Assembly (NCBI GenBank): GCA_963579555.1
Contig: CAUZHA010000009.1
Span: forward strand, 2,432 to 66,431
From: Planctomycetes bacterium UBA1146
GTDB lineage: Bacteria; Planctomycetota; UBA8108
Reading direction: 5' to 3'
DNA length: 64,000 nt
Below are positions 8,509 through 53,100 of the stretch, piece by piece. Position 1 is the stretch's first letter. Every line of letters starts with the position of its first letter. The notes beneath the pieces were generated by a model, which was given only the letters and a program-made list of their open reading frames with translations, searched no databases and was not told where the DNA came from. Position numbers and translations under genes: made by a program.

Positions 8509-8512
8509 AAGA

Positions 8513-18230: not shown

Positions 18231-18323
18231 TCATCTCTCCCCTATTCTGCAATCCGTTGAAAATGAAGCGCGCCAACGGCGCATCTCGTCCAGTCGGAGC
18301 GCCCTGCGCTCCGGCAAAAACCA

Positions 18324-25254: not shown

Positions 25255-28200
25255 TCAGAATCCGAACGGCAGACAGCCAGCCTCGTCCAACCTGAATGGA
25301 AGACTCAGGCTCTGGATGGACTGGGTCTCTCCGGTGCCGTACTTCGACTGGAAGTAGACTCGGAACCGTACGTACCTCGTCCCCTCCAGCTTGCGCGGAT
25401 CCCGCACGAAGCCTGTCAGTTCGCCAGCCTGGCCATGGACATCGAGACTCTCGCCGGCGCTTTCCCAGACGACAATGGCCCGGGTTCCGGGAGGCTGCTG
25501 GAAGGTATTGTAGTCCACTCGGGCTCCATCCAGAAGCAGCGCGTGATTCGAAGCGGCGCGGCCGGGGCCGACACCGATTCGATAGATCTTCGAGACCGCG
25601 ACGGACTCGACGATGTCGGTCAGGAACGGGCCGGTCGTCACACTCGGGTTCACACCTTGCGAGCGAATTCTCGAAGAAGGCGAGTACTCGATACGAATTC
25701 GGCCATTTGAAGAGGGACCTCCCAGGCCGCCAAAAGGCGTACCCGTAAGGGCCGGGGCGGTATTCGTCGACGCGGCTCGAATATTGCCCTCGTAGAGACG
25801 GACACCGCTGGAGAAGAAGGGAGGCAATTGGTTGGCCTGGCCCGCGGTCACGTCAAACTGGACTCCGCTCTCCAGGGTAATCGTATTCTGAACTTGCAGG
25901 AAGATCGTCCCGCCCGCCCCGGCACCGCCATTTCCGGCGAGATCGAGGGACTGATAGGCATCTCCTCCGCGAGACACAAGCCGCGCGCTCGAACGCAGGT
26001 AGAGATCCTGCGCAACGATATGGAGGATTCCTCCACCTCCTCCGCCACCGGTACCCGGAGCGTAGAGGGCCTCTCCCTTATAGGGGTAATTACCGATGAT
26101 GCTTTCGTTGCGGTACGCTCGGCTGATATTGGCGCTGCCGCCGCCGCCGCCGCCGCCCATACCGCCAACAAGGGCGAGCTGGGGAGCCTGTCCAAGCAGC
26201 GTCAGGCGCTGGTTGGGGAAGTTGACTGTGTCGCCACCCTGGCCGGCGAGCTGGCCGGCAAGGCCTCCGTTACCCGGCAGGAGCTTGACATCTCCATCCT
26301 GGCCGGCCTGGCGATTTCCACCGCCGCCGCCGCCGCCGCCGGACTCGAAGCAGTCGAAGCCGCAGGTCCGTCCTGGGAGGCTGCCGCCGCCGGTGGAGCC
26401 ATCAATGTTCGGCAATCCCGGCCTGAAAACCAGGGGAAGACCATTGAGAGTCGTGATCAGGTTCGGAAGGACCGAGGCCTCTCCTCGGGTTACCTGGGTA
26501 TTTCCCGCGCTGCGATTGTTGGGGTTGCCATCTGCATGGGATATCATTCCGCCCGCACCGCCACCGCCCCCGCCGGCTCCGGGTACGCCGCCAAGACCGA
26601 ACAGGGGAGTCTCTCCTCCCCCGATAAAGCGGAGCGCGCCGCCGACGCCGCCGGATGTATCGATCGTCCCGGCGATCTCGGCATAGTCTTTTACCGAGAT
26701 GGTCAACGGGTTGGGACCTGTCGCCCTCAGGACAACATCCTCGTCGATAATGAGCGCCGAGAGATCCAGGAAGCCGGGATTGAGATCCGACTCCCGGGTT
26801 TCCTTGACGATATTTCCAACAGGGGAGCGCAGGATGCTCGTAGTTGTATCGAAAGTCCAGACCGAGATGGGACGACCCGTGATTTCGTCCAGAAGGATCT
26901 CTCCAGTATTCGGATCGAGACTCTGGATAAACCGAAGGTGAACCACTCCATCTCTGCCGCGACCGAAGGAGGGCTCTTCAGAAGCCTCGATAAATCCTCC
27001 GTTCTCGAGCACAGCGGGATCTGTGGCTGGCTCGATGGTGCTTGGATAAACAAATACCATCGTATTCGAGGAGTGAGACGTTCTCGTGCCCTGGACCGCC
27101 CGGGTAAGACCTGTGAAGGTACTTGCCGTCTTTCCGCCGTAGCCAATGACCTCCTCCTCAATCTTGACGAATCCCGCAGACGGGAAAGCCTGGGTAGATT
27201 GCACGCGGATCGACTGGTTACGGTTATTGGAGCCGCTCAGGGTCGAGGTGAGACGCGTCGTGGCCTGCAAGGTCATGCAGAAAGGAGTTCCTCCAGTTCC
27301 GCTCTCGAGACGAATGAACCCGTCGCCTCCAGTTCCTGAGCCGCCCGAGCGGTTTTGCCCGTTGGAGGGGCCTCCGCTGCCGGCCGCGCCGCCCCTTACC
27401 TGAAGGCTGTCACAGCTGGTGACATCGACGGAGCCCGTGGCTCGCAGATGAATCGAACCACCGCTGCCGCCTCCTCCTGCCCCACCATTCGTGGTGCCCG
27501 CGGGCGCCTCTCCAGGGGGGACTCTGCCGGAACCGCCGGCGCCGCCATTGGCCAGGATGGATCCGATGACGACAACGCTGCCGCGGGCGGTAAGCCGCAT
27601 GGCTCCACCTCCGCCGCCACCGCCGCCGCCGCCGGTCGAGGCGAACTCAGCACCCATGGAAACGCGGGAAAGACTGGCGCCACCGCCGCCGCCGCCGGAG
27701 CCGGCGGTGAGGGGAATCTGCAGAGCGTTGCCTCGAGCAACTCCTCCCTTGCCTACACGCGGCTGGATAAAACCTGAAATGTTCGTTGTTCCGTAATCAC
27801 CGTCGCCACCGCGAACGCGATGCCCGCCGCCGCCTCCAGGCGCGCCGGCAAAGGTTGAGTTGCGGGCCGTGTCCGGGTTGACCGCAGCCGGGGTCGTTCC
27901 GCCGCCGCCGCCGTTAACGCCGTCCGTGGCAGGCTCGAGAAGCTGAACGGCCGCTGAGGTCGCTCCAGTGAGCTGCATGAGAGCTCCATCTCCGCCCTCA
28001 CCGCCGCCAGCAATTCCCTCGCCTCCGGAACCGCCGACAAGTGAACCATCCGCTCCGGCGCCTCCGTTGAGATCAAGAAGACCGAGGATGGTAAAGACCG
28101 GGTCGGTATCGGAAACGCTGTTGTCGCCGCCAGAGCAGCGAATCACCAGGGGCTCGACCCCCTGCACAAAGACCGTGGTCTGTGGGGAGATGGTGAAATT

Positions 28201-29943
28201 GGCGAAGTGGAATTCGCCGAATTCTTCTCCAGGATTACCCACCCTGTTTCCATCTGGAGTGCCATCATCAGTCAGAATGAAGGTACTTGACTCCTCGACT
28301 ATGACCGCGGGCTCGCCCTCGAGAGCGACGTTCCTGAGAAGAATATGGGTGACATTGAGACGATCGGTATCGATCAGATAGTACTGGCCGGTGATCGTAT
28401 CAGGATCGAGGAAATTTTCCGTCGGCAGTACCTCCAGGTCGACCTGGGCAAGGCCCTGGCCAAACTGGTAGTCATCATCTGTCGAGGTCCGGCCCTCGAG
28501 AAGCCCGGGGTTGTAGGGAGCGCCCCAGCTGGCATCGGTCTCGTTCCTGTCAAGGTTGGTATCGTTATCGAACGACTCCGTGATCTCAGCGGATCTCCAG
28601 TCGGAAACCGGATCTTCCGGGCGATCTTCGAGCCAGTAATAGATAAACGAGGGCGCCATGAAGGTATGCGAATTGAAATCACGGTCACCCGCATCGGGAA
28701 CGGGACGAACCCGGAAATGAACCGTCCAGTGTCTCGGGGGAGAGATGCCGGCCTCGACAGTCTCATTCAAGTCCCTGAAAAGAGGATCGCATTGGGCGTC
28801 CCATACGAAGGTCCGATGGAGGCCGCTGGAAGGCAGCATGCGCTTACCGAGGTACTTATGCTGAATCGTTCCGCAGGTAATCTCAAACTTGCCGTCGTTC
28901 GCAGGATCTTCGTCGCGCGGCTTCGCCGGCTGCCACTCAAGCTCCCCGAGGGGATTGTCAACAGCCCATTCAAACTCCATGGTATAGGATGCATCGACCA
29001 CCAGTTCGTAGCAGGTGTAGTCAATTCGGACGGATCCGGTCGCGATCCCGGTGGGGCCTCGCATTCCGTTGACAACCGCACCGATGACCTCGATGAGGTT
29101 CTCATTGGCGACCGGGATCTCTACCCTGTTCGAAGAGCCAGAACTGCTCCTGGCGACAATGCCGAGATTCTCCCGCGGCAAAGCGAAAGGGAAAGAGAAG
29201 TTGTTATTGCCCGTGGCCCCATGATTGAGAACGAATGAAAAGGATTCATAGCCGGAAGGAACGCCGCCGGGAACAAAGGCCCCGGTGGCCTGGTTACGAA
29301 TAAAGGTGCTCGCAGGCACGCGGGCGGTGTTGCCGCCGCCATCATCCAGATCAAGATAGGCTACGTCGGTGAGATTGATACCGTAAATGTTGACCCGGCT
29401 GTTCTCCTGGAAGCGTGAGAGCAACGGTATGTAGACAACATATTCATCCTCTTCATTCGCTCCGAGCGTAACGGCGTAGATAGAGGGACACGCGTCAAAA
29501 CCGACGGCCCCGGCCGACACGCCATGGCAGAGCATCTCGATATTACCAGAGGTCACGCCAGTGGGGACAATGACCTCGAGATAGGACTCAACGGTGGCGC
29601 TGTTTGCATCCACGCGAAGATTGACCACGTCAAGCGGCATGCCTTCGATCGCTCCGTTGCCTCCGGAGAAGAGAACCTGGTGGCTCTCGATCTCATCGGC
29701 GAAATTGAATCCGTTGAGACGGATAATGGTTCCCGGGCAGAGGGGATCCTCATCGTTGCCCACCCCTACGCGCTCGTAATTGAGCAAAACGCAGGCGGTA
29801 AGGTCACCGATCACGGGATCCGGTTCTTCCCAAGGGAAGCCCCCTCCTCCACTATTCGACTGGTCCCAGGAGAGATCGCACCCCCCGACGAAGAGAGAAG
29901 CCCCCAATAGGGCGATGATAATGAAGAGGCTATTCCGGTTCAT
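25255..29943 (-). CDS. Giant (1562 aa) glycine-rich secreted lipoprotein with IPT/TIG-like N-terminal region and long poly-Gly/GGxGG repeat zones
   Basis: N-terminus MNRNSLFIIIALLGASLFVGGCDLSW (lipobox-like VGGC). Dozens of G-runs (GGGGGGGGG, GGSGGEG…). Its 24-nt gap to ftsY is convergent. Function unknown. Confidence 0.6.
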   Translation of the reverse strand: MNRNSLFIIIALLGASLFVGGCDLSWDQSNSGGGGFPWEEPDPVIGDLTACVLLNYERVGVGNDEDPLCPGTIIRLNGFNFADEIESHQVLFSGGNGAIEGMPLDVVNLRVDANSATVESYLEVIVPTGVTSGNIEMLCHGVSAGAVGFDACPSIYAVTLGANEEDEYVVYIPLLSRFQENSRVNIYGINLTDVAYLDLDDGGGNTARVPASTFIRNQATGAFVPGGVPSGYESFSFVLNHGATGNNNFSFPFALPRENLGIVARSSSGSSNRVEIPVANENLIEVIGAVVNGMRGPTGIATGSVRIDYTCYELVVDASYTMEFEWAVDNPLGELEWQPAKPRDEDPANDGKFEITCGTIQHKYLGKRMLPSSGLHRTFVWDAQCDPLFRDLNETVEAGISPPRHWTVHFRVRPVPDAGDRDFNSHTFMAPSFIYYWLEDRPEDPVSDWRSAEITESFDNDTNLDRNETDASWGAPYNPGLLEGRTSTDDDYQFGQGLAQVDLEVLPTENFLDPDTITGQYYLIDTDRLNVTHILLRNVALEGEPAVIVEESSTFILTDDGTPDGNRVGNPGEEFGEFHFANFTISPQTTVFVQGVEPLVIRCSGGDNSVSDTDPVFTILGLLDLNGGAGADGSLVGGSGGEGIAGGGEGGDGALMQLTGATSAAVQLLEPATDGVNGGGGGTTPAAVNPDTARNSTFAGAPGGGGGHRVRGGDGDYGTTNISGFIQPRVGKGGVARGNALQIPLTAGSGGGGGGASLSRVSMGAEFASTGGGGGGGGGGAMRLTARGSVVVIGSILANGGAGGSGRVPPGEAPAGTTNGGAGGGGSGGSIHLRATGSVDVTSCDSLQVRGGAAGSGGPSNGQNRSGGSGTGGDGFIRLESGTGGTPFCMTLQATTRLTSTLSGSNNRNQSIRVQSTQAFPSAGFVKIEEEVIGYGGKTASTFTGLTRAVQGTRTSHSSNTMVFVYPSTIEPATDPAVLENGGFIEASEEPSFGRGRDGVVHLRFIQSLDPNTGEILLDEITGRPISVWTFDTTTSILRSPVGNIVKETRESDLNPGFLDLSALIIDEDVVLRATGPNPLTISVKDYAEIAGTIDTSGGVGGALRFIGGGETPLFGLGGVPGAGGGGGGAGGMISHADGNPNNRSAGNTQVTRGEASVLPNLITTLNGLPLVFRPGLPNIDGSTGGGSLPGRTCGFDCFESGGGGGGGGNRQAGQDGDVKLLPGNGGLAGQLAGQGGDTVNFPNQRLTLLGQAPQLALVGGMGGGGGGGSANISRAYRNESIIGNYPYKGEALYAPGTGGGGGGGILHIVAQDLYLRSSARLVSRGGDAYQSLDLAGNGGAGAGGTIFLQVQNTITLESGVQFDVTAGQANQLPPFFSSGVRLYEGNIRAASTNTAPALTGTPFGGLGGPSSNGRIRIEYSPSSRIRSQGVNPSVTTGPFLTDIVESVAVSKIYRIGVGPGRAASNHALLLDGARVDYNTFQQPPGTRAIVVWESAGESLDVHGQAGELTGFVRDPRKLEGTRYVRFRVYFQSKYGTGETQSIQSLSLPFRLDEAGCLPFGF

Positions 29944-29982
29944 GGATACCCCAGACTCCTTTTTCAGCTACTTGCCGGCAGT

Positions 29983-30031
29983 AAACTGCCATTTCTTACG
30001 GATTTATAAAGTTTACCCAAACTGCCGTTTC
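29983..30031. repeat. Direct repeat AAACTGCC(A/G)TTTC x2, 40-90 bp upstream of the giant Gly-rich gene start (candidate regulator site)
   Basis: Seen directly: copy 1 at 29983-29995 (aaactgccatttc), copy 2 at 30019-30031 (aaactgccgtttc). CCATTTC also recurs at 30031-30037. Confidence 0.3.
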
Positions 30032-30958
30032 CATTTCCCATTCAAGAAATCGGGCTTCAGCAAAGAGGGCGTCCGAAAGGAATCGCTTCCCGTCAGAGGT
30101 CTCTAAACATCTTCCCTCTCAGGATCTGTCGGTTCTTACCTGAACCGGAAAATCCCAGGAAACAGTCAGGGAGTAATAAAGAAGATATTTCTATTTCTGG
30201 TCTATTCAGGCATGCACCAAAGACCCTGTTTTTCCCACACGACAAATGGACGCCGCAAGAAATCAGGAATGCACACCAAGTAGTAGATGTTAACTCTCCA
30301 CTATGAGTTTGAAAACCCCCTTTTCCTTAGAAAGAACCGGAAGCTGGCCCAGGGCCAAAGCAGTGACTCCAGATCCTGAAAGCATGTAAGACTCTAAACT
30401 TGCGGGGCTCCATTCCGGCTAAAACCCTTAAGGTCAGGCCATCGGGATACACACATCTCGCAATTGCCGTTCCGGCATCCGCAATTTAGATAATCTTCTA
30501 CTAAGCATTATAACCTAAACAGTTTATGGGAAGCTGGATGACCAGTTACGGGACTTCGACTGCAAAAATGGCGCGTAAGTGTATCCATTTCGCCCCACCT
30601 GCCAAAAAGATGTACGAAAGCTGCCGGGTTCATAAGGACCCCAACTTGCCCCTAACCCGCAAATGTGGGCAGAGTCGAAACAGATGGCTTACAATGCAGT
30701 AGAAGATTCGTGATGTAAGATTATTTCTTCAACAGCAACCCGCCAGGCCCATCCTGAAAGATGTCACGCAGCTTTAAAATCCTCTTCGAACGCGAACGGG
30801 AGTTCTTCTCCCGACTGTTCTCTTCATTGAAGAGGAGTGATCTTAAGCGTAGACCTTCCCGTCGACCGCCAAGGGGCCATCCCCGCTCCCCCAACCTGGC
30901 TCCACTCCAACAGATTTCCTTCCGCCGCAGGTACCCGAAGCTGACGAGCCTGTTGGCC

Positions 30959-32464
30959 ATGAGCGCTTCAATTGTTTTCCATCTCACCATCGGCCTGCTC
31001 CTGATCTCCTGGCTCTTTGAGAAACCGACTCCTCCACAACCAAGAGAGTTCATCGTCTCGATACGTCTCGCCCCGAAAAAGCTGCCGCCTGAAAAGAAAC
31101 CGGGCGAAACAGATCAGCCGCAGCCCGTAGAACAGAAAAAGGAAGTGCCTGAGAAGCCTGCCGAAAAGCCGGTCAGGCCCAGGCCTCAAAAGAAAACTCC
31201 AGTAAAGGAAATCGCCCGGGTAGAAAAGAAGGCTCCACCCAGACCGAAGCCGAAGAGAGAGACGAGCAGTCCGGACACGAGGAGCCTGCGACAGTTCAGG
31301 AAGGCTCCGCCGCTTGGACTGGGCGCATCCCCGCCCGGCCTGGCAGGCGGCTCGAAGATTGGCGGTGGAGCGCTTGGCTCGCGGGGGAGGGATGCCAAGA
31401 CGGTGGCGCTGCAGCGCTACGGAGGCAACGGCCGTACCGAGAACGCCGTCGACATGGGGCTCCGCTGGCTGGCGGCTCACCAGGATTCCGACGGCGGCTG
31501 GGATGCGAAAGATTACCAGCGACACTGCCGCAATCATCCCAAGTGCAAGGGACAGGGATTGATGGAATTTGACCTGGGAACATCGGCCCTCGCGACACTC
31601 GCCTTCCTCGGATCGGGCCACTCGCCCAATAAGGAGGGCCCCTACCGCCGCCACGTCACCAAGGCTCTGCAAAACCTGCTAAACGCGCAAAACGGCAGCG
31701 GCAGCTTCTACCCGTCAGGTGACAAGTATTTCTACAATCACGCCCTGGTGACCCTGGCCATCGCCGAGGCCTACGCCATGACCCGCGACCCCGGCTACAA
31801 GGACAGCCTGGAGAACGCTCTGGAATACACCTTCTCCTCCCAACAACCTGGTGGAGGATGGGACTACACCACCGCGAAAACCGGTCGAAACGACCTCTCC
31901 ATTACTGGCTGGCAGGTGATGGCCCTGCGAGCCTCGGACAAGGCGGGCATTCGCATTCCCGCGAAGATCCGCCAGAACGTCAGCCATTTCATCAATCGCG
32001 CTTTCACCAAGAACGGCTATGGAATCTATGCCAACATCGATCCGGAGGCCGGCCGCAAGGGGGCCAATATGGTTGCCGTCGCCCTCCTCTCCCATCTCTA
32101 CAGCGGCGGTATCTCCTCCGACTCAAGAGCCAGGAAGGCCATTGCGCACCTGGTCCAGGGGAATCCTCCGGAAGGAAAGAAGCTGGCCAACTGGGAATTG
32201 AACTACCAGTCCTACTACTACTGGTACGCGGCGACCCTGGCTCTCTTCAATGTAGGAGGCAAGACCTGGGAAGCGTGGAACATCCTGCTGCAGCGGACGT
32301 CCCTTCCGCTGCAACGGCGGGATGCCCACATCTCAGGCAGCTGGGACCCCGAGCCCAGCTGGATCGGCCGAAGCGGAGGCCGGATCTACTCGACGGCGAT
32401 CAATGTGCTCACCCTCGAGGTCTACTATCGCTACAGACCCGTCTTTACCTCTCGCAAATCATAG
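30959..32464 (+). CDS. Membrane-anchored prenyltransferase/squalene-cyclase-like repeat protein with TonB-like N-terminus (TM helix + Pro/Lys-rich linker)
   Basis: The ORF is open from 30761, but the first 66 codons are Arg-rich junk-like. ATG 30959 gives MSASIVFHLTIGLLLISWLF (TM), then PPQPREFIVSIRLAPKKLPPEKKPGETDQPQPVEQKKEVPEKPAEKPVRPRPQKK… as linker, then QW-type repeats (AAHQDSDGGWDAKDY…, NAQNGSGSFYPSG…, SSQQPGGGWDYTT…). It is a paralogue of 8513..9694. Confidence 0.55.
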   Translation: MSASIVFHLTIGLLLISWLFEKPTPPQPREFIVSIRLAPKKLPPEKKPGETDQPQPVEQKKEVPEKPAEKPVRPRPQKKTPVKEIARVEKKAPPRPKPKRETSSPDTRSLRQFRKAPPLGLGASPPGLAGGSKIGGGALGSRGRDAKTVALQRYGGNGRTENAVDMGLRWLAAHQDSDGGWDAKDYQRHCRNHPKCKGQGLMEFDLGTSALATLAFLGSGHSPNKEGPYRRHVTKALQNLLNAQNGSGSFYPSGDKYFYNHALVTLAIAEAYAMTRDPGYKDSLENALEYTFSSQQPGGGWDYTTAKTGRNDLSITGWQVMALRASDKAGIRIPAKIRQNVSHFINRAFTKNGYGIYANIDPEAGRKGANMVAVALLSHLYSGGISSDSRARKAIAHLVQGNPPEGKKLANWELNYQSYYYWYAATLALFNVGGKTWEAWNILLQRTSLPLQRRDAHISGSWDPEPSWIGRSGGRIYSTAINVLTLEVYYRYRPVFTSRKS

Positions 32465-33293: not shown

Positions 33294-33932
33294 ATGCTTG
33301 ATACAATTGAAAAGACCATCTACGGAATCTGCGGCGTAGCCCTTCTCGGCGTCACCGTACTCTACGCCTGGAACCAGGTCCCCGACACCGACCCGAGAGA
33401 GTTCATCCCCGATTCGATCATCACCACCGCCCCCCCCCAGCAGCTGACCGCCCCCAAGGGAGGCGCGAAGCAAACCCCGGTGACCGCCAACAAGATCACC
33501 ATCGAAAAAAACAAGGTCCTCGGCAAGCTTCGCAAGGCCACACATCGCCCCATCTCGGTGACGGACATCGAGGTCAAGTACATGCAGATTCAGAAGCAGA
33601 GCTTCGACTTTATTAAAAACGAAACCAACTGGCTGCCGGAGTTGAAGCTGGCCGGAAGCAGGGTGAAGACCAACAAGAAGGATAACAGCCAGAGCCTGGA
33701 GCTCACCAAGGTCAAGGAAGGCTCGCTGCTGCGCTCGGTCGTCGGACTCGAATCGGGCGACACCATCGAGCTCATCAATGGAGAGCGGTGGGACTTCACT
33801 GGAGAAAACACCCTCAACTACCGCGCCCAGGCGCTCGATATGATTGACAAGATCCAGGCCGGCGGAAGCATCAGCCTGACCATCACTCGCGACAACGCGC
33901 CTCAACACCTCACCTTCAGCCTCCTCGAATGA
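33294..33932 (+). CDS. Hypothetical single-TM protein (GspC/PDZ-like C-terminal region possible)
   Basis: 212 aa with N-terminal TM (IYGICGVALLGVTVLYAW). The C-terminal …LTKVKEGSLLRSVVGLESGDTIELINGERW… resembles a PDZ-like fold, which is a weak call. ATGA overlap with the downstream M20 peptidase gene. Confidence 0.4.
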   Translation: MLDTIEKTIYGICGVALLGVTVLYAWNQVPDTDPREFIPDSIITTAPPQQLTAPKGGAKQTPVTANKITIEKNKVLGKLRKATHRPISVTDIEVKYMQIQKQSFDFIKNETNWLPELKLAGSRVKTNKKDNSQSLELTKVKEGSLLRSVVGLESGDTIELINGERWDFTGENTLNYRAQALDMIDKIQAGGSISLTITRDNAPQHLTFSLLE

Positions 33933-35092
33933 TCAAGAGAGCTCTTGCCATCAGACACCTGATGGATCTCTTGAAGGTTCCCGGCCCCAGCGGCGGGGAA
34001 GCCGCTGTCGCAGCGCTGGTCATTGCGAAGCTCATCGAATGCGGCTGCAAAAAATCCTGGCTGAGCCACGACAATGCCCATAAAAAAATTGGCGACGGCT
34101 ACGAGGTCGGCAACCTGATCGTCAAGCTGCCGGGCACCACCAGGGGCCCTCGCCGGCTCTTCTCCGGCCACATGGATACCGTACCGCTCTGCCAAGGAGC
34201 GGTCCCCGTCCGGCGCGGCAACAGGATCGTCCCACGGACCCGGACGGCCCTCGGCGGCGACAACCGTACGGCGGTGAGTTGCCTGGTGACTATCGTCGAG
34301 ACTCTCCTCCATGAGAAGCTCCCCCACCCCCCGCTGACGTTCCTCTTTACCGTTGGCGAGGAGGTTGGCCTGAGGGGAGCGAGGCAGGTCAAGTCCAGCG
34401 ACCTGGGCAAGCCGGCCATGGGCTTCAATTACGATGGAGGTGACCCGGCCTCGATCATCATCGGCGCGACAGGAGCCGATCGCTGGCAAGCCGAGGTCCG
34501 AGGCATATCCTCCCACGCCGGCGTGCATCCTGAGGACGGCGTGTCAGCGTCCCTCATCACCAGCAAGGCCATCTCCGAGATCGCCGCGAAAGGTTTTTTT
34601 GGAGATGTCCGAAAGGGTAAAAAAAGCGGGACCTCCAATGTCGGCCCCATGCAGGGCGGCGAGGCCACCAACCAGGTAACGGATCTCATGGTGCTCCGCG
34701 GCGAATGCCGCAGCCATGATGCGGCATTCCTCGACCGCATCACCGAGGCCTATCGCCGCTCATTTGAAGCGGCCGCCGCCTCGGTTAAAAACGCCGCGGG
34801 AGAAAGCGGGAGCGTCAAGTTCAACATCGCAAGGGACTACCATTCTTTCGAGATGAAGAGCGACTCGCCGGTTGTACGCCAGACGCAGGAGGCGGTCAAG
34901 AAGCTCGGCCTCGAACCCAGGCTGGTCATCGCCAATGGCGGCCTTGACGCCAACTGGCTCAACCGCAAGGGCATCCCAACCGTGACGTTAGGCGCCGGCC
35001 AGCACAACGCCCACACCCTGCGAGAGTATGCCGACATCGGGGAATACCTGCTTGGCTGCGAACTGGGGCTATCCCTGGCCTCGGCGATCTGA
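33929..35092 (+). CDS. M20-family metallopeptidase (peptidase T-like)
   Basis: …LFSGHMDTVP… …LFTVGEEVGLRGA… …PMQGGEATNQV…; overall M20/M25/M40 architecture. Confidence 0.75.
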   Translation: MIKRALAIRHLMDLLKVPGPSGGEAAVAALVIAKLIECGCKKSWLSHDNAHKKIGDGYEVGNLIVKLPGTTRGPRRLFSGHMDTVPLCQGAVPVRRGNRIVPRTRTALGGDNRTAVSCLVTIVETLLHEKLPHPPLTFLFTVGEEVGLRGARQVKSSDLGKPAMGFNYDGGDPASIIIGATGADRWQAEVRGISSHAGVHPEDGVSASLITSKAISEIAAKGFFGDVRKGKKSGTSNVGPMQGGEATNQVTDLMVLRGECRSHDAAFLDRITEAYRRSFEAAAASVKNAAGESGSVKFNIARDYHSFEMKSDSPVVRQTQEAVKKLGLEPRLVIANGGLDANWLNRKGIPTVTLGAGQHNAHTLREYADIGEYLLGCELGLSLASAI

Positions 35093-35119
35093 GCCTGGCA
35101 GCCGCGGCTCCTCCGGACC

Positions 35120-36055
35120 TCAGACCTCGATCTCGAAGCGACGAACGAGGTTGTAGAGGGTCTTGACGTTGATTCCAAGCTGGCTGGCGGTGAGCATCCT
35201 GTTGCCGCCGTTGCGCTGGAGAACCCGGATAACGTGAGCTCGCTTGACCTCCTCCAGGCTGTCGACGGATGCGGCTCCTGCCCCTCCCGACCGTCTCTGA
35301 ATCATTCCCTTCGTGTGTTCGAGAACCTCAGACTCGGTGACGACTCGCCGTTCACAGAGCAGGAGCAGGCGCTCGACAACATTCTCCAGCTCGCGAACAT
35401 TTCCTTCCCAGCTGAAGCCCGCCAACAGTTCGAGGGCGCCGGGACTGAACGCTCTCAACTCGATGCCCTCCGCAGCGGCCAGCCTTCGGGAAAACTGCCC
35501 TATTAGAACGGGAATATCCCGAATTCTCTCCCGAAGCGGAGGAACGACGAGAAGGACGACATTCAGTCGATAGTAGAGGTCGAGGCGAAAACGTCCTTCC
35601 CTGACCTCCCTGTGGAGATCTTTATTGGAGGCCGCGAGAATCCGCGCATCCGTATCGATCAGCGTCGTTCCTCCCAGCCTCCGAAGCTCGCGTGATTGCA
35701 GAACCCTCAAGACCTTGACCTGCATGGCCGAGGACATCTCTCCCACCTCATCGAGGAAGACCGTCCCGCCATCTGCGAGCTCAAACAGACCCTTGCGTCT
35801 CTCGACGGCGCCGGTAAAGGCTCCTCTCTCATGGCCGAAAAGTTCACTCTCCAGCAGCGCCTCGGCGAGGGCTCCGCAGTTGACCGCCACGAAGTCCGCG
35901 TCGGCTCGCGGGCTGCGCTGGTGAAGGTGACGGGCCAGCACCTCTTTGCCGGTTCCACTCTCGCCCTGGATCAATACCGTCGTGTCAGTGGGCGCCACCC
36001 GCTCGGCAAGCGAGATGATCTCCTTCATGCGCTCGCTCTCACAGACCAGCTCCAC
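35120..36055 (-). CDS. Sigma-54-dependent transcriptional activator (AAA+ + Fis-type HTH, no sensory/receiver domain)
   Basis: …[19 protein letters not shown]…[29 protein letters not shown]…[12 protein letters not shown]…VRILAASN…[13 protein letters not shown]…[12 protein letters not shown]… then C-terminal HTH (…[18 protein letters not shown]). The ORF is open to 36304 but overlaps the HD-GYP gene (stop at 36132) in another frame. A likely start is GTG 36055 or ATG 36028. Confidence 0.75.
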
Positions 36056-36131
36056 TCGACCGCAGTGGGCAGTCTCACTTCGCCGTCGTCCGGCCGGTCG
36101 CCCGGCAGCCTTGTCAACGCGAAACGAGGGC

Positions 36132-36995
36132 TCAGGCACTGGTATAGATTCGCTCCCTGTAATAGGTGAGATTACCCAGGAAGATGCCGACGATTTCGCT
36201 GTCAAGGTGGCTACCGACAGCGGCTGCCAGGTTTTTCCGAATCGTTGACTCAGCCAGGCTGTCCTGGTATGGACGACAACCCGCCATGGCATCGTAGGCG
36301 TCACAGACCGCCAGGATTCTCGCCTCTACCGGGATCTCTTCCCCCACGAGCCCATCGGGGTAGCCTCCCCCGTCCATCCGCTCGTGGTGGTGCCGAACAG
36401 CCGCCGCCGCCCAGCCGCAATCCAGCAGGCGCGCGAGCGGCGCGACCAGGGCCTCTGAATATTCAGGGTGAGCCTTGATCTCTTCGTATTCCTCGTGCGA
36501 CAGCTTGCCGGGCTTCCTGAGAACCTCGCCTGAAATAGCCAGCTTTCCGACATCGTGAAGAGCTCCGACCCACTCGAACTCGGCGGACTGCTCCCTCGAC
36601 AGGCCGAGGTCCGCGGCAAGCAGAGCCGAGAGAAGCCCCACTCGCCTCGAATGCTCATCGAGATATTCAGCCTTGCAACGCAGAGCCGCCATGAAGTCAT
36701 TGGTGCGTTCCCGCAGAATCGTCTCGGTGGCGGTGGCGCTGAGAGACTCGATGGAGCCAATAGCCAGGGGCGCCTCGACCTCGGCAAGGGCGCCGCGCAG
36801 GAGACAGGTGTCCGGCCAGGATCGACCCGGGGAGACGAATGGCTCGCCCTGGATGCCCGGCAGGATGCAATCGGTCAGCAGCGCTGTAGTCGAGGGGAGC
36901 GCTGCCGGAGAGGTGTCCTCGGCGGCATGGGCAACGCGAACCGCGCCGGCCCGATCTTCCCCGCTACCTGTTTTTCTCTTTTGCGACATATTCAA
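36132..36995 (-). CDS. HD-GYP domain phosphodiesterase (c-di-GMP), stand-alone
   Basis: …[13 protein letters not shown]… …[12 protein letters not shown]… …[14 protein letters not shown]… (HD and HHExxDGxGYP signatures). ATGA overlap with the upstream gene at 36992-36995. Confidence 0.8.
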
Positions 36996-37897
36996 CTCCC
37001 GCTATTGCGATGCCGGGCTCTCATCTTCCCTGGCTCGGAATCGAGCCGACGAGAGAACCAGGACCTGTCAACCTCTGTCCCGAGATGATGCCGGAGGCGG
37101 TTCATTTCGGCGGCCTCGGCGCCACCGACCCAGAAGCCTGCGATCCCGGCTGGAAGATCAGGGAGCTCGACCGTCCCCTTCGTCTCGCGAAGAATTCCCT
37201 GAAGCTCTGCCTCGAGCTGGAGATAGTTCCCTGGCCAGGGGTAGGTGACCAGCGCTCCGAAGGCCTCGGGGCTGAACTCGCGTCCCCCTGGAGAGACCTC
37301 GAGCTCGCCGGCCTGGTGATCGAGCAGGCTGCCAAGGTCCCGCATCCTGCAGCGCAGCGGCGAGACCGTAATGGCAGAGCGGCTGAGGACTTCAAAGAGG
37401 CGCCGAGAGTAGAGTCCCGCCCTGGTAAAAGACGCAAGGTTCCTTGGGCTCGAAAACAGGAGCCGTATCGGGAAGCTTCCCTCCAGGTAATCTGCAAGCC
37501 GGCCCTGCAATCGCAGGGAGAGCTCTTCGCACCGGGAAAGGTAGCAGGTGCCGCCCGCGGAGCCCTCCTCGAGCTGCAGAAGGACTCCCTCCAGTTCATC
37601 CTCGAAAAACCTCGAGCAATCGACCGCCTCGAAGGGCAGGTTGCCCGTCTTTGACCCCGCATGGATGAAACGAGCGATTCGCTCTTTGCCAACGCCCCCC
37701 TCGCCCATCAGGAGAACAGGTCCTGCCAACTCAACAGCCGCCATGACAGCCGCGCGAAGCTCCACCGCAAGTGAGCTTGACCCGCCCAGGACCCCGGGAC
37801 AATGCGTTTGCATCGAATGCACATCCGGCAACCCGCGCCGGCGGGCGCCGCCGGGCATGAGAGACCCGAAAGTATTGGGATCCAGGTGTTCTGGCAT
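36992..37897 (-). CDS. Degenerate sigma-54-activator-like AAA+ protein (no GAFTGA loop, degenerate Walker B, no HTH)
   Basis: Aligns by eye to the EBP central domain: LLMGEGGVGKERIARFIH (Walker A), LPFEAVDC, …FPIRLLFSSPRNL…GLYSRRLFEVL…, …TYPWPGNYLQLEAELQGIL…. However ESELFGH…GAFTGA is replaced by EDELEGVLLQLEEGSAGG, and the protein ends without a DNA-binding domain. Confidence 0.6.
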   Translation of the reverse strand: MPEHLDPNTFGSLMPGGARRRGLPDVHSMQTHCPGVLGGSSSLAVELRAAVMAAVELAGPVLLMGEGGVGKERIARFIHAGSKTGNLPFEAVDCSRFFEDELEGVLLQLEEGSAGGTCYLSRCEELSLRLQGRLADYLEGSFPIRLLFSSPRNLASFTRAGLYSRRLFEVLSRSAITVSPLRCRMRDLGSLLDHQAGELEVSPGGREFSPEAFGALVTYPWPGNYLQLEAELQGILRETKGTVELPDLPAGIAGFWVGGAEAAEMNRLRHHLGTEVDRSWFSRRLDSEPGKMRARHRNSGS

Positions 37898-38031
37898 GGT
37901 TCAACATCCGCTTGATTCAACAGCTTCTTCGCGGTTGAAGGCGCTACGCGGACTGCTCGCCCGTTATAACTGCCCTTGCCGCCAATCCGCCTGTTAGCGA
38001 TTGACAAACCCCAAAACCCAGCGCCAGAGAA

Positions 38032-38060
38032 GTATATGGCCTGTTAGGAACACCGTCAAA
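38032..38060 (-). promoter_or_regulatory. Candidate sigma70-type promoter for the EBP-like/HD-GYP/EBP operon
   Basis: Minus strand reads TTGACG (38060..38055) - 17 bp - TATACT (38037..38032), ~135 nt upstream of ATG 37897. Sequence-only prediction. Confidence 0.4.
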
Positions 38061-38177
38061 CCGGCCTGAGCGCCGATAAAAGCGCTCCCTGCGGCCTCCA
38101 GAGGGCCCTTCCGCCAGCATCCGGAAGGAAGCTTCTCCCCGCCGGCTGTTTTCGGAAGTTCAGATGGTCCGGGAAAC

Positions 38178-41100
38178 TCAGGCTGAGTGGCTGGTGGCCA
38201 TAGCCTCCATCTCGTCTGGATCGTAAGACTCCAGCGAAACAGCGACTCTCTTCGACACCCCGCGCTCCTGCATGGTGATTCCGTAGAGGGTGTCGGCCTG
38301 GCCCATCGTCACCTTATTGTGGGTGATGATGATGAACTGGGTATTTTCCAGGAAGTCATCCAGCAGAACCGTGAATCGTCTCACATTGGCGTCATCCAGG
38401 GGCGCATCCACCTCGTCCAGGATACAGAATGGACTGGGCTTCGACTTGAAGATGGCCAGCAGCAGGGCGATGGTGGTCATCGTCTTCTCACCGCCTGACA
38501 TCAGCGCGAGAGTACGAAGCTTCTTGCCGGGAGGCCGGGCAACAATGTCGATCCCCGCCTCCAGTATGTCCACCCCCTCCTCGAGGACCAGCTCGGCGCG
38601 GCCGCCGCCGAAGCACTTTCGAAAGAGGTCCTTGAAGTTCAACTGGACGGAGTCAAAGGTCTCCTGGAAGAGTTGTCTGCACTTCGTGTTGAGCTCGGCT
38701 ATGACGGCCTGCAATTTTTCAGAGGCATCCTGGAGATCAGTCTTCTGATCCATCTGGAACTTGTAGCGTTCCTCGAGCTCCTGGAGCTCATCGAGCGCCT
38801 CGAGGTTCACGTTTCCGAGCCGCCTCATCTTCCCCTGCAGATCCTTCAGCTCTTCTGCAGCCGCGGCGCCATCCCAATCCGGCAGGGGCTTGAGAAATCG
38901 TTCCTCATCGCTCAGCTCCTCAGGCCCATCGATCGACTGGCTGTCTTCCTCCCGGACCCCGGACTCATCTGCCTGCCCGGCTCCCGCTTCACGGTCAGCG
39001 GGAACCTCAGAGCTCTCCGCGCAACCCTGGACGACAGGTTCCCCGGCAACCTCAGGCCCTGGCTCACAGGCCTCCTCGATCGCTTCCCAGTCAGGCGCAT
39101 TCGCAACCAGGGCCTTCAGATCGAGGCCGTACTCCTCCTCGATTCTATCGAGCGCCGTCTCCCGGCGATGACGCTCCTCCTGGTCTTTCAGGTTGATGGA
39201 TTGCTTTCTCTCGGTGTGTTCACTGATCCTGGCCCGGACACCCTCGCATTGCCGGCGGATCGCATCTTCCTCCTGCGAGAGAGCCTGCTCCCTCTCGTCA
39301 AACTTATTGAGCTCATCGACCAGACCGGTCTCTCTCTCGCCCAGCTCCAGCAGCCTCGCGCGCGAATCGACCTGATCATTGCGGGTCTGGGAGATTCGTT
39401 CCTCGCTCAGGCGACTGGCCTCGCGCAGATCAGCGCACCTGGATTTCTGGTCGTCCAGGTTCCTGACATGCTTATCGAAGAACTCCCTTAGATTCCTGTC
39501 TTCATTTTCCACCTTGCCCAGGGCGACCCTCGCCTCCGAAGCATCATCTTTCGCCCCATCCGCCCTGGCAGACAGGGTCTCGAGCTCCAGCTCGATTCGC
39601 TCGATCGAATCCTCCGCTTCCGCGCACTCTGAATCCAGGCGGGCGATCTCTCCGGAATAATCCGCTTCTACAGAGCTCTTGCGGGCTCTCTCCACCTTGA
39701 CCTCTTCCAACTCACGCCGACTGACCTCGAGCTCGCCCTCGAGCTTCTCAATCTCCCGCGCAGCCTGGGCAACCTCTCCCTCGCAAACCAGGACCCGCCT
39801 CCTCACCTCATCAGCCGAACGATCCTTGTTCTTCAACGCCAGCTTGAGCTGCCCCAGTTTCCGGCGGTGGCCCTCAATACTCCGGCTCAAGTCATCGCAC
39901 TCTTCCTCTCGAGTCCTGATCGACCCGCTCAGGCTGTCAAGCTCTGCCGCATCGACAGCCCCGCCGGAGCGGGCTCCGGGAACCGAGAGTCCTCCCCAAG
40001 GCTCGAGCAGTTCCCCGCTGGAGGTCACGAGCCGGTACGCTCCAGCCCCGTTCCTGACGAGAGAGAAGGCTGTCTCGATGTTCTTCACCAGGACGACATC
40101 CCCAAGAAGGAGATCGGCGATCCTCTCGAAGCCTGGCTGGACCTCGACAAGCTCGCGAAGAATCCCAATCACGCCCTCAACCTTCGGCAGCACGCCGAGG
40201 TCGGGCGACTCGACCCGATCGAGCGAGATGATGCCGGCCGATTCGCCATCTTCGCGCCGCACGCGGCCAAGCAACTCGAGAGCCCCCTCCTGTCCCTCCA
40301 CGACAACTGCATGGCGCAGCTCTCCCAGGGCCGCATCCAGCGCCATGGCACAGGACTCATCAGCGCTGATGACCGAACCTACTCTCCCATGAACCTGGGC
40401 GGCGGAGCCCAGCTCTCCCGAGCGGCGGGAGAAGACAGCGGAGCTGTCCTGCAGAGAATTCAAGGCCTCAAACCTCGATGTGTCTCGATTCAATTCCTGG
40501 CGGAGCTCCCGAAGTTTCGCCTCCTGCTCCTCGATGCGCACCTCGAAGACCCCCATGGCGTGAGCGATCCTCTCGCGTCCGGACTCCACCTGATCGAGCG
40601 CCGCGTTGCTCTCCACTGTTTCCTTATTGAGACCGCCACCGCCTGTCGCGCAGCGTCCAAGAGCCTCCTCCTGCCGGATGATCAGCTCCTCGTAATGGGC
40701 CTCCCTCTTCTCGATCGCATTCAGGTCAGCCGCCGTCTGCACCAACAGGTTGTAGGTCGCCGCCCTCTCCTGGAGGCCCTCAACCAGGCCCTCCTTGCGT
40801 GCGTCAAGTACTCCCCTGGACTCTGCCAGCAGCTCGCGGCGAAGCTTCAGCTCATCTTTCGTGTTCGTCAGCAGAGCCCGGCATCTCTCGATCTCCGAGT
40901 CGACCCGGCCAAGCTTCTGGCGTTCTTCTTCCACCTGCCTCTCCGTCCGCCGCAAGCTGACGATGGTCTGTTCGAGATCCCGCTTCCTGTTTTTCTCTTC
41001 TTCAACAAGCTCTACATAGCGCTTATCAGCCTGGTTGATCTTCTCCATCGTCCGCTCACGGGCGATGCGTTCACCCTCCACCTCATCCCGCGCCGCCTGG

Positions 41101-50177: not shown

Positions 50178-53100
50178 TCACTCGCAGATATCGTCAGCGG
50201 TTGGATCAGAGCCGATCCCGGGAAACGGCGCCGGCGGCATCTGGGTTACATCGGCGGGGTCCTGGAGGAATTGAAGCAACCTCATCAGATCGCCGAAATT
50301 GAGACGGCCATCATCATTGATATCAGCAGCGTCATGGTTGTCCGGCCAGACACCCGCTCCACCAAAGAGGAGACTCGAAAGCAGGGTCACGTCAGAGTCC
50401 GTAACCTGCCGGTCCCCATCGACATCTCCTCGAATAAACGGCGGGGGATCCAGGTAAAGAAGGAAGCCTTCACTCTGGGCCAGGGTCAGTGGATCCCGAA
50501 CCCGCAGCGAAGCCTGCCCTGCACTTTCGCGGCTCGGAGCAAAAAAGCTCAGATGCTGTCCTGAGTGGAATACGAACCCTGCGGAATCAACAACGATTCC
50601 ATCGACCAGGACCTCGCAACGATCTGTGAAGCCATCTCCGAAGAGATCTACATGGCTACCGCCACAGATCGAGACCGCGTTGGGCTGGACCAAGTTGACC
50701 TCGATCTGGTTGGGCTCCGGCTGCATATCCGGACACTCTCCCTCGATGATATCCAGGGGAGTTGGCAGCGACAGGACCTCGATGGGCACGCCGGCAAGAT
50801 CAAAAGGATCCAGGACCTCGACCACCACGAAGGCCTCGTCGAGGACAGGCAGCCCTTCGACGGGAGCTCGAACGAGCATCGTGCGGCCGTCGTTTGAAAC
50901 AGCCGATCGTCCTGAACGTTCAAAAGGCAACGCGACCATCGGCTCGAGGCCATCGACCTGCAGCTTCACCACGGTGCTGCGGGAGAACCCGGCGCCTCTC
51001 ACCTCGATGAAATCACCACAGCCTGCCCGCAGGCTGCTCACGTCAACGCCTTCAAGGCTGGGCGACTCGAAGGAATAGACCTCGGGAAGGAGTGCATCCT
51101 GCCCTCCGGTCGAGAGCAGGATGTCGTAGAGTACGCTGCTTGAAGCCGGAAGCGCGGCGGGCCTCGGTCCGAGAGCATCCGGTACGACAAAGGATATGGC
51201 GCCGGAGTCCATAACGGTAATATTCGCAGCGGGAACCTCGATGCTCTCAGAGCCTCCTTCTACAGGAACAAGCCTGATTTCCGGGGTGAGCCCGGCGCCG
51301 CCATCGAGGCCTTCGCCTGAAAGCCGGACCTCGTTTCCACCTGTGAGTGGCCCCGTAACCGGCGTAGCCGAGGCGAGCCCGAGCGCGGGAAAGTTGCCGC
51401 CAAGGGTCACACTCGTATCCAGGAATGCGTCGATCACCGGTCGGCCGGGAATAGCCTGCTCCGGGAAGAAGGAGGTGGGCTGATCGGCGGAGGGATCAAA
51501 CAGGAAGGTGATCTGCGAGATGGTCCGCGGATCGTCCGGGGCCAGCTTCGAGGCGAAGGTGAAGTTCAGGACGGTTCCATCCTCAAACGGAGCGATAAAG
51601 TCAGACCCGAGAGTGGAAAAGTTGAAGCTGATCCAGCCGACCCTCAGGTCTCCGCTCGAGTTGATGTCAGGAAGCGTATCCTCTACAGGCAGGAAGATCT
51701 CCCCGAGGTCAGCAGCGACCGTGCCCTCCTGCTCCTGGTCAACGGGCAGGAGCTCGAGGTGCTCGGGGTTGAACTGCAGGTGAACGGTGTAGGCATTGAA
51801 GCGATAGTTCGGTATCTCAGACGGAGCGCGGAGGCTTCCTTTCACGGCAACATGGAAAATCGCGGAATCCTCCGCATCGGGAACCAGGTCAAGCTTGAGG
51901 TAGCTATTCGCGTATTGAATAGCTCCCTCTGCCATGTCGAGAGAACGCCAACTGTCAAAGCCGGAGAAACGAATGCGTATGTTCTCGAGTCGAATGAGAT
52001 TACCCTGGGGAAGCACCGCAGGAAGCTCGGCCTGGAGCTTCGCCAGGACAACCTCGGAGGAGCCTCCGATAGACTCGAGGACCAGGTCGCCCTCGCTCAC
52101 CGTGATCCGCTTGAGGCCATCACCTTCGGGAACCGAAGCGAGCGCCGGGCTCAGCAGCGAGATGGCCTCTGGGATCACGAGCTCGAATTCAACCGCCTCG
52201 ATAGCTGAGGAGAGCCCGGAAGTCACGATCGGAATTTCAAAGGAGGGCTCTCCTACCGCGGCAACGACCGCTCCAAGAGAGATGGAGGGTGAATAGATAA
52301 CGCCACCGACACAGCTGGCCTCGTCTCCGCCAGCGCTCAGGGTTACCTCGTAGGAGCCAACCGGCTCAATAGAGTCAAAGAAATAGCCGGTATCGCTGGG
52401 TAGGATATCGAAGACGGTCCTCGAGTCGACCGTCGCGCCCGCGATGACATGGCTCAGCTCGAGCTGAAGCAGGCTGTCTCCATAGCCGCGCCAGGGGGAG
52501 TCCCAGTTGACTGCGATCCCGCCGGAATCCTTGACGCACAAGATGGCGACCTCGTCCAGGTCAGGAGCATTCAGCGTGAAGGGCTGGAAGGTGACCGAAT
52601 CGCTGTCGATCGGGGTCCCTGCCGGGAACCCATCACAGGCGCCATCAGCGTTCTTTGTCGCCGTCAAGGTGAGCGTATAGGTTCCCGGAGCCGCCCCGCC
52701 CCGGCCCAGCTCACCTTCGTAGATGAAGGAGTCCTGGTTGGCCTCCTGCCCCTGCAACTCCATACCCGTCTCACCGAAGAGATTGACCGGAGCGCTGCCT
52801 GGAGCCGCCGGCTCAAAAAGAAGCTCGAGCCTCATGAGATCGTAGGCCTCTCCGTTGATCCAGTCCCAGCGGATCCTCAGTGGAGCCGAGGAGCTCGAGC
52901 GTGACAGGAGCGTCCCCACCACCGGCGAACGAATAGGAACCTCGGTATCACAGGGCTCCGGATCGAGTCCACTGCAGGCTCCCCTGGAGCTCTCGATGCC
53001 GCCGATGACCGCGCTGACCTCGTAGAGATCACTGCCATCGTCGGCTGAGGGGCTGTCCTCAAAGATAAAACCTCCCACCGGCAGAACGCTCGACCTGAAG

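Follow-up and report, generated by a model that had tools for sequence, protein, structure and literature searches.

On the minus strand of a 64-kb stretch of DNA from an uncultured marine Planctomycetota bacterium (contig CAUZHA010000009.1; the whole stretch is referred to below as the window), three consecutive genes at 35120-37897 encode a degenerate relative of sigma54 activators (g1, the pseudo-activator), an HD-GYP protein (g2) and a sigma54 activator (g3). This arrangement had been proposed in an earlier note on the same DNA, and it is confirmed by the open reading frames (ORFs) and by strong domain matches for all three genes; the protein motifs quoted there were all found in the translations. 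None of the three matches a named NCBIfam equivalog. Related public contigs or lineages are designated by L-numbers, and the window clade comprises L001-5 and L092/93.

Gene boundaries and anatomy of the three-gene cluster

Read along the minus strand, the features of the cluster are the following:

38031-38059, minus strand: TTGACG-17-TATACT, a promoter-like site of the sigma70 type lying ~135 nt before the ATG of g1
36992-37897, minus strand: g1, 301 amino acids (aa; 273 aa from M29), with an AAA+ core, a lid and a family-specific C-terminal tail (profiles, structural model and motif alignment)
37814-37897, minus strand: first 28 codons of g1 (alignment with orthologues and with upstream ORFs in other lineages)
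37682-37705, minus strand: retained Walker A of g1, GEGGVGKE, residues 65-72 (sequence)
37523-37546, minus strand: degenerate Walker B of g1, CYLSRCEE, residues 118-125, with DE replaced by SR (alignment)
36132-36989, minus strand: g2, 285 aa, HD-GYP, the N-terminal ~100 residues being a decayed receiver (Pfam HD_5 at 1e-30, also HD; alignment)
36843-36881, minus strand: receiver remnant of g2, 13 residues, 37-49 (alignment with orthologues that join a receiver to HD-GYP)
36357-36392, minus strand: HD-GYP signature of g2, residues 200-211, invariant in four lineages (sequence)
35120-36139, minus strand: g3, 339 aa from GTG 36139, with an N-terminal stub, an AAA+ domain and a Fis-type helix-turn-helix (HTH), and no regulatory domain (Pfam, motifs)
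35807-35824, minus strand: GAFTGA sigma54-contact loop of g3, residues 106-111 of the 339 aa (sequence)

In the mechanical ORF list the minus-strand genes span 36992-37897 (g1), 36132-36995 (g2) and 35120-36304 (g3), and the junctions once read from these limits do not stand. The ATGA stop/start overlap described at 36992-36995 is TTGA on the minus strand, the g1 stop being TGA at 36994-36992, and g2 starts, according to both gene callers and orthologues, at ATG 36989, 2 nt past that stop. Similarly, the 173-nt overlap of g2 and g3 at 36132-36304 is merely a mechanical upstream extension of the g3 ORF. The start of g3 is most likely GTG 36139 (GTGCCTGA), so that its product has 339 aa and the gene overlaps the g2 stop by 8 nt. 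Two observations support this start: the N-terminus that it gives, MPEPSF, matches that of long orthologues (MPVPEPF, MPDPSIG), and L013 and L094 show an identical 8-nt overlap. Within the same stretch, the window and L092 differ by an indel that is in frame. Public gene callers chose other starts for g3, at ATG 36028 or GTG 36055.

The start of g1 may likewise lie at M29 (ATG 37813) instead of 37897, and orthologues at 47-60% identity begin at the residue aligned with M29. An upstream ORF of 31-74 aa is found in L008 (5621-5716), L006 (5611-5817) and L094 (4998-5222), where it begins at an ATG homologous to window position 37897 and ends 4 nt into g1 in an ATGA-type overlap; it sits downstream of a conserved promoter-like site and shows no conservation at the amino-acid level. 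The first 28 codons of g1 are therefore probably such an upstream leader ORF, fused in frame in the window clade.

The derivation of g1 from the AAA+ module of sigma54 activators, as originally suggested, holds by Pfam, profile and structural match. Pfam returns Sigma54_activ_2 (3.9e-15) and Sigma54_activat (1.4e-10), with the lid domain below threshold and no match to an HTH, and a profile of the g1 family matches the AAA+ domains of ZraR, FleQ, NtrC1 and PspF at 1e-23 to 1e-32 (1e-28 to 1e-32 for the first three); identity to g3 is 29%. An AlphaFold2 (AF2) model reaches a predicted local distance difference test (pLDDT) score of 82.6 up to residue ~240, the tail being disordered, and is biased towards the activator fold because the underlying 44-sequence alignment includes ordinary activators; its best Foldseek match is the FleQ AAA+ domain, with a template modelling (TM) score of 0.71-0.77. 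An earlier AF2 model built from a 12-sequence family alignment (pLDDT 40) was unusable.

Alignment to solved activators and to g3 also bears out the reported loss of GAFTGA, Walker B and the DNA-binding domain. Where activators carry FLDE, g1 has YLSR; ~15 residues are deleted precisely at the position of GAFTGA (the L1 loop), together with ~12 residues of the pre-sensor-I hairpin (L2); the arginine finger has changed from FR to YS, and sensor II from NVRELEN to NYLQLEA. The C-terminal tail follows a conserved pattern (FWLG..PEVR..L...EF.VL.RLD.EFG). A MAFFT alignment had placed this tail on helix 1 of a Fis-type DNA-binding domain, as if the rest had been truncated, a reading that was rejected because profile-profile comparison with the C-terminal domain of g3 gave no similarity (hhalign probability 0.2%). 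By these motifs, g1 would be an old activator paralogue that kept the P-loop and the AAA+ fold and is predicted to be unable to hydrolyse ATP, to offer an arginine finger, to touch sigma54 or to bind DNA.

The earlier note had also kept in view that g1 might prove, on resequencing, to be a frameshifted fragment of a normal activator, and it is not. At least nine contigs from independent ENA, JGI and Logan samples encode a 301-aa protein identical to g1, each time in an unchanged context, and dozens of orthologues exist. The ratio of non-synonymous to synonymous divergence (dN/dS) lies at 0.25-0.35: a relative with 84% identity gives 0.25 and relatives at 47-49% identity give 0.34, with values of 0.09-0.22 for the neighbouring genes. 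g1 is under purifying selection and is a genuine protein.

The activator gene is of the opposite kind. In g3, Pfam detects Sigma54_activat (2.3e-69), AAA_lid_14 and HTH_8 (29.1 bits against a cut-off of 22), and Walker A, Walker B (FLDE), the arginine finger and sensor II (NVRELEN) are intact, as they are in eight of eight orthologues, all of which also carry GAFTGA or GSFTGA. g3 is thus predicted to be a fully competent sigma54 activator, and the preservation of its catalytic and contact motifs in eight lineages implies a functional sigma54 in these organisms. Its description as a complete activator core with no input domain is correct for the present gene, which nevertheless represents a derived, reduced state. 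Most g3 orthologues, those of the long form, carry at the N-terminus a domain that resembles receivers and TadZ_N only weakly and scores under the Pfam cut-offs. Alignment shows it to be a pseudo-receiver: NR or HR (DR in L098) stands in place of the acidic pair, Val or Ile occupies the position of the phospho-acceptor Asp, and the Thr and the Lys have given way to Ala or Ser and to Ala or Gly, respectively. Relative to orthologues of 469-474 aa, the window-clade g3 shows an in-frame deletion of ~132 aa in which the pseudo-receiver has gone and the first residues and the linker have been kept; the loss of the pseudo-receiver from g3 of L100 appears, on sequence comparison, to be independent.

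Between the two AAA+ genes, g2 has an invariant metal-ligand set (H113, HD145-146, H174, HHHE200-203, DGGGYP and D230) and a complete HHExxDGxGYP motif. Its best solved relatives, both at ~1e-26, are the Vibrio cholerae cyclic GMP-AMP (cGAMP) phosphodiesterase V-cGAP3 (5z7c) and the cyclic di-GMP (c-di-GMP) HD-GYP protein PmGH (4mcw), whose substrates differ (3'3'-cGAMP and c-di-GMP) at near-equal scores. The HD-GYP assignment stood, whereas the statement that the receiver is wholly missing did not, since a remnant around the phospho-acceptor Asp is kept. This remnant, with L37, T39, D40, P44, G48 and E49 invariant, aligns with the phospho-acceptor strand LLITDLMMPRMSGE of a canonical orthologue joining a receiver (REC, confirmed by Pfam at 1.7e-25) to HD-GYP, and the segment around the Asp has stayed conserved across three lineages (window, L006 and L094). 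The acidic pair of beta1 is absent, as are the beta4/beta5 regions bearing the Thr and Lys, and phospho-control has therefore presumably been lost. The orthologues in L097, L099 and L100, in contrast, have a full REC domain with acidic pair, Asp, Thr or Ser, and Lys. In comparison with RpfG-type REC-HD-GYP proteins, the complete HD-GYP motifs and the canonical REC of these three orthologues are points of likeness, and the reduction of the window receiver to ~13 residues is the difference. g2 is best regarded as a predicted active cyclic-dinucleotide phosphodiesterase that would descend from an RpfG-type response regulator.

The earlier suggestion of an operon is supported: the cluster looks like one unit. 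The TTGACG-17-TATACT site is the sole promoter-like match in 34900-38400, and both of its hexamers are invariant in five lineages (window, L092, L008, L006 and L094) where the surrounding spacer has diverged. No terminator-like site was found inside the three-gene cluster, the genes are separated by a 2-nt gap and an 8-nt overlap, and the junctions are overlapping or near-overlapping in all lineages examined. A search upstream of g1 for a -24/-12 promoter, as expected of sigma54-dependent autoregulation, found none, the site there being of the sigma70 type. The operon is probably driven by this sigma70-type promoter, with translationally coupled genes.

Conservation of the pseudo-activator/activator pair

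A word-based search with g1 yielded 31 relatives, with a gap between them and ordinary activators, and a pattern scan of GTDB species genomes yielded three true orthologues, all in marine Planctomycetota metagenome-assembled genomes (MAGs). Both searches understated a family that proved far larger when approached by other routes: distant g1-like genes were found by searching with a long g3 orthologue and reading the gene contexts, and an exhaustive hidden Markov model (HMM) search, together with a search using the L097 member, added ~70 further clusters of ~310 aa, set apart from ordinary activators by an E-value jump from 1e-61 to 1e-45. The g1 family comprises more than 100 clusters of ~310-aa planctomycetal proteins; the members with a named source all belong to Planctomycetota or Planctomycetes, and some lie on contigs of 7.9 and 9.2 Mb.

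The pattern of losses is a property of the family. Among 14 aligned members from nine lineages, Walker A (GxxGxGK) is present in all and GAFTGA in none, the Walker B DE has become [SA][RNHS] in every one, the arginine finger is lost throughout and the sensor II arginine in 12 of the 14, and no member has an HTH. A further 63 full-length members agree, with Walker A in 62, a GAFTGA-like motif in none and SR, SH, AR or AH at the DE position in 55, while 47 of 49 ordinary activators returned by the same search carry GAFTGA. In distant members the L1 and L2 loops have normal length, with unrelated sequence where GAFTGA would stand (e.g. GYRGIGKAAKSRRG), whereas both loops are deleted in the window clade.

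Gene context was read in nine lineages, as follows:

Window clade (L001-5, L092/93): g1 of 301 aa; HD-GYP with receiver remnant only; g3 of 339 aa
L006/L011/L013: g1 of 298-299 aa; HD-GYP with receiver remnant only; g3 of 469-471 aa
L094/95: g1 of 315 aa; HD-GYP with receiver remnant only; g3 of 474 aa
L096: g1 of 315 aa; no HD-GYP; g3 of 474 aa
L098: g1 of 324 aa; no HD-GYP; g3 of 482 aa
L097: g1 of 334 aa; canonical REC-HD-GYP; g3 of 489 aa
L099: g1 of 315 aa; canonical REC-HD-GYP; g3 of 477 aa
L100/101: g1 of 306 aa; canonical REC-HD-GYP; g3 of 338 aa
L102/103: g1 of 313 aa; no HD-GYP; g3 of 484 aa

All nine have a g1-type gene directly upstream of a g3-type activator, with at most an HD-GYP gene between the two; this HD-GYP gene is present in six and carries a canonical receiver in three of those six. 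The conserved unit is accordingly the g1-g3 pair and not the trio, the conservation of which had been put forward as a check. Viewed against this series, the window trio appears to be a reduced form of a wider pseudo-activator/activator module, and the window lineage seems to have been stripped of cis inputs, namely the g2 receiver, the g3 pseudo-receiver and the remnants of the g1 L1/L2 loops. The notion of a self-contained, input-less module describes its present state; the REC-HD-GYP proteins and g3 pseudo-receivers of distant lineages indicate that this state is a derived reduction of something wider.

The surroundings of the pair are partly variable and partly constant. A ~700-770-aa upstream gene, an M20 peptidase gene and linkage to SMC each occur in only some lineages, and in L102 glycoside-hydrolase genes precede the pair in place of SMC. 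Downstream, a block consisting of a ~200-aa membrane protein, YjeF_N, a squalene-cyclase-like (SQHop-like) protein and a protein of 1475-1657 aa is constant in nine of nine lineages.

Several of these neighbours were characterised further. The ~700-770-aa gene lies immediately upstream of g1 in L096 (3640-5913), L097 (1709-3970), L098 (3861-5987), L099 (3-2315) and L102 (4583-6652), and its products in L096 and L097, the two that were scanned, consist largely of pentapeptide repeats (Pfam E-values down to 1e-80); it is missing from the window clade, where SMC directly precedes the operon. An M20/M28 peptidase gene at 33929-35092, convergent with g3, occurs only in the marine clades (window, L006, L094) and is absent from the same position in L096-L102, so that it looks like an insertion into a conserved block. 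The adjacent 212-aa protein (33294-33932) has an N-terminal membrane helix and no Pfam match; a ~200-aa counterpart adjoins g3 in other lineages and, in L099, is encoded on the same strand directly downstream of it. This membrane protein is possibly a further member or a target of the module. The 1562-aa protein encoded at 25255-29943 on the minus strand has no Pfam match, and its orthologues (1475-1657 aa) are placed alike with respect to the g1-g3 pair in each of the eight lineages with contigs that extend far enough.

Candidate targets and the rest of the window

The intergenic stretch 29943-30761, which separates the 1562-aa gene from the divergent squalene-cyclase-like gene (30761-32464, plus strand), is strikingly conserved as DNA. 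Long blocks of it are invariant between the window and L092, and even between the window and L006, despite a coding synonymous divergence (dS) above 1 in the latter case. The stretch contains one sigma54-like candidate:

30474-30460, minus strand: CGGAACGGCAATTGC, within 29943-30761, upstream of the 1562-aa gene

In the window, -24/-12-like sites matching at 9 or more of 12 positions occur at ~0.47 per kb, and the chance rate is ~0.5 per kb. L092, L006 and L094 have the candidate element at a comparable distance ahead of the giant gene and L099 has a similar site, while the element was not found in L096, L097 and L100; because the whole region around the candidate is conserved, it is only a lead as a target of g3. 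A conserved GGTTATAATG lies ~45 nt upstream of it, and GGCAGTTTACTGCC, a perfect palindrome, precedes the ATG of the 1562-aa gene by ~35 nt. A search of 29900-30800 for inverted or direct repeats that could act as enhancer sites gave nothing convincing, and Rfam and tRNA scans of the window gave no matches. The intergenic stretch may be a long structured leader or non-coding RNA, a dense regulatory region or a target of g3.

Elsewhere in the window, a MoxR-type AAA_3 ATPase, a DUF58 protein and a BatA/VWA protein follow one another on the minus strand at 14998-19550 as a Bat-like aerotolerance or MoxR-VWA operon, and further upstream of this row lie large proteins with no Pfam match (2801-8808 and 12464-15082). 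A 2073-aa protein at 50178-56399 (minus strand) combines FG-GAP, Big_5 and a C-terminal dockerin, and a 503-aa protein at 58943-60454 (minus strand) also has a dockerin; dockerins are notable for a planktonic planctomycete.

Proposed mechanism, rival explanations and significance

The occurrence of a g1-type gene directly upstream of g3 in every lineage examined makes g3 the most likely partner of g1, and g1 would be expected to act through its AAA+ oligomerisation surfaces because these are its only recognisable heritage. Co-assembly of g1 with the active hexamer, or poisoning of it, as suggested in the earlier note, is plausible. We lean towards the tentative reading, which falls a little short of probable, that g1 is a dedicated partner of g3 through AAA+-to-AAA+ contact, serving as a built-in anti-activator or gate, with g2 as an accessory input. 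A g1 subunit would enter or cap the g3 ring and leave its own ATP site silent and, having no trans arginine finger, would also silence the adjacent g3 site; with two sites inactivated in this way, an inhibitory or gating role is the most economical. The effect would be set by stoichiometry and by the nucleotide in the g1 P-loop, whose retention suggests a nucleotide-dependent switch. The recurrent insertion of an HD-GYP gene between g1 and g3 suggests a cyclic-dinucleotide input or a trigger-enzyme contact, and g2 could couple the pair to the pool of c-di-GMP or a related molecule, either by changing a ligand of g1 or g3 or by direct contact of the latter kind. The specific form in which g1 is a pseudo-enzyme ring subunit whose P-loop senses ATP/ADP, or a cyclic dinucleotide set by the HD-GYP protein, and switches the ring on and off, seems unlikely as it stands.

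Several observations weigh against this picture. An inhibitor encoded in the same operon as its target would need a relief signal, and without the Walker B aspartate g1 may bind nucleotides altogether more weakly. g1 is also the fastest-evolving gene of the block, at 47-49% identity where SMC retains 75% and g3 ~70%. The HD-GYP gene is missing in three of the nine lineages (L096, L098 and L102), and c-di-GMP is therefore not essential to the g1-g3 pair; the shared downstream block means that the adjacency of g1 and g3 could partly reflect vertical inheritance. No rpoN was found among the genes of the 64-kb window, and the -24/-12 consensus is not enriched across it (45 matches against 50 expected), with no target promoter found. 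Lastly, the comparison with FleQ that had been drawn for c-di-GMP binding finds no backing in the sequences. FleQ binds c-di-GMP in its AAA+ domain, with contacts from R144 in the linker, R185 after Walker A, E330 and R334 (PMC10723142). Of these four residues only the equivalent of R185 (ARxxH) is kept, a residue common to activators in general; at the positions of E330 and R334, g1 has H and E while g3 has G and R, and an LFRS-type linker arginine is absent from both, as judged by sequence mapping only. A FleQ-like c-di-GMP pocket in g1 or g3 was accordingly rejected, R144, E330 and R334 not being conserved, though c-di-GMP may still be bound in another mode.

The main rival to an inhibitory role is a positive one of the FleT or HrpR type, in which g1 would support assembly or stability of a mixed active ring, or alter promoter choice, while g3 alone hydrolyses ATP and contacts sigma54. 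The strict co-occurrence of the two genes, with g1 upstream in one operon, speaks for this role, and since the pseudo-receiver of g3 orthologues is not phosphorylatable, a protein partner may be needed for assembly. There is also precedent. FleT of Cereibacter (Rhodobacter) sphaeroides has no DNA-binding domain, is inactive alone and works as a hetero-oligomer with FleQ (PMC11999139), which resembles the placement of g1, without a DNA-binding domain, beside a full g3. However, FleT is described as an enhancer-binding protein whose complex activates sigma54 (RpoN2) promoters, whereas g1 is predicted to be dead and has no contact loop; the phylum differs, and the flagellar hierarchy in which FleT operates is absent here. 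In Pseudomonas syringae, HrpR and HrpS are encoded in tandem and form an obligate, co-dependent hetero-hexamer, and partial degeneration of a paralogue has been proposed as the origin of this new mode of control (PMC3105312). The likeness lies in two paralogous activator-type AAA+ proteins within one operon, and in an activator devoid of a cis regulatory domain in the window. HrpR and HrpS, however, share 55-65% identity, and both contact sigma54 and both carry an HTH (PMC3105312). g1, at 29% identity to g3, lacks GAFTGA, Walker B, the arginine finger and the HTH, so that it could not contact sigma54 in the same manner, and an HD-GYP gene lies between the two AAA+ genes here. Without a trans arginine finger in g1, the g3 sites beside it should be catalytically impaired, and no fully dead subunit is known to be required for the function of an activator. 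A positive partnership is for these reasons considered unlikely.

It is less probable again, although still worth some weight, that the three genes are neighbours by descent which do separate work: g3 as an ordinary activator, constitutive or regulated in trans, g2 as a general c-di-GMP phosphodiesterase, and g1 as a nucleotide-binding adaptor acting elsewhere, on g2 or in a process independent of sigma54. All nine lineages are related Planctomycetota with the same downstream genes, so that the linkage could have been inherited, and the HD-GYP gene is dispensable in three of them. Other genes of the block, however, have been gained, lost or inverted, yet only g2 ever separates g1 from g3; an overlapping stop/start is kept at the g2-g3 or g1-g3 boundary of every lineage; and the sole detectable homology of g1 is to the oligomerisation module of activators. 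The loss of nearly all catalytic motifs, the L1/L2 deletions of the window clade and rapid evolution might suggest that g1 is a pseudogene in decay, or a normal activator garbled by misassembly or a frameshift, but this reading is effectively refuted by the independent assemblies, the dN/dS values and the fixation of GTCYLSRxEE without GAFTGA, alongside a conserved C-terminal tail, across more than 75 orthologues.

If g1 is instead a dedicated anti-activator or gate, it can be compared with known regulators of the same activator class. NifL, PspA, HrpV and FleN are trans anti-activators of NifA, PspF, HrpS and FleQ, respectively, and nifL and nifA are co-transcribed and translationally coupled. 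Like g1 in the proposed role, each is a separate, often nearby-encoded protein that binds the AAA+ domain of an activator; unlike g1, which would be a pseudo-enzyme version of its own target, none is a paralogue of the activator. PspF and HrpS resemble the window g3 in having no cis regulatory domain (PMC3105312).

A second group of systems ties a c-di-GMP enzyme to an activator-type AAA+ protein, which is also the likeness of FleQ, BerB-RpfR and VpsR to the cluster described here; in the window, however, the enzyme is an HD-GYP protein and not of the EAL or GGDEF type, and it can be dispensed with, as the lineage series shows. VpsR has REC and HTH domains, whereas g1 has neither. VpsR is described as lacking conserved residues of the enhancer-binding proteins that activate sigma54 (PMC6158489), and RpfR, which metabolises c-di-GMP, binds the activator BerB directly (PMC9684580).

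Public databases also contain polypeptides with two to three tandem sigma54-activator AAA+ modules (P0173, P0174, P0177 and P0178); P0177 carries GAFTDA and GAFTGA, and P0173 a degenerate first module with two FHA-AAA+ units. We know of no description of such natural tandem-ring activators. P0173, P0177 and P0178 were considered as evidence of g1-g3 fusion and rejected, their modules being duplicated ordinary activator modules and not g1-like.

Full-text literature searches returned no description of the pair or the trio, nor of a dead activator paralogue partnered with an activator, in agreement with the earlier note, which knew of none for the trio. Sigma54 activators are a textbook AAA+ machine, usually acting as homo-hexamers under the control of a fused sensory domain or an unrelated anti-activator. 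The conserved pairing of a dead copy with a working copy points, by sequence comparison, to an undescribed mode of control for these proteins. A selected dead paralogue that travels with a competent activator would add a further control principle, regulation by a pseudo-subunit, and, if true, this would be the first bacterial enhancer-binding protein controlled by a dedicated dead paralogue, a counterpart to the pseudo-ATPase subunits that play regulatory roles in eukaryotic AAA+ assemblies, ORC and RFC among them. How many active subunits and sigma54 contact loops a ring needs is a question that has until now been approached largely through engineered mixed rings, and the pair would offer a natural system for it. 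The lineage series, in which g2 passes from REC-HD-GYP through a remnant to absence and g3 occurs with or without its pseudo-receiver, would likewise provide natural variants for dissecting the inputs to this planctomycetal module.

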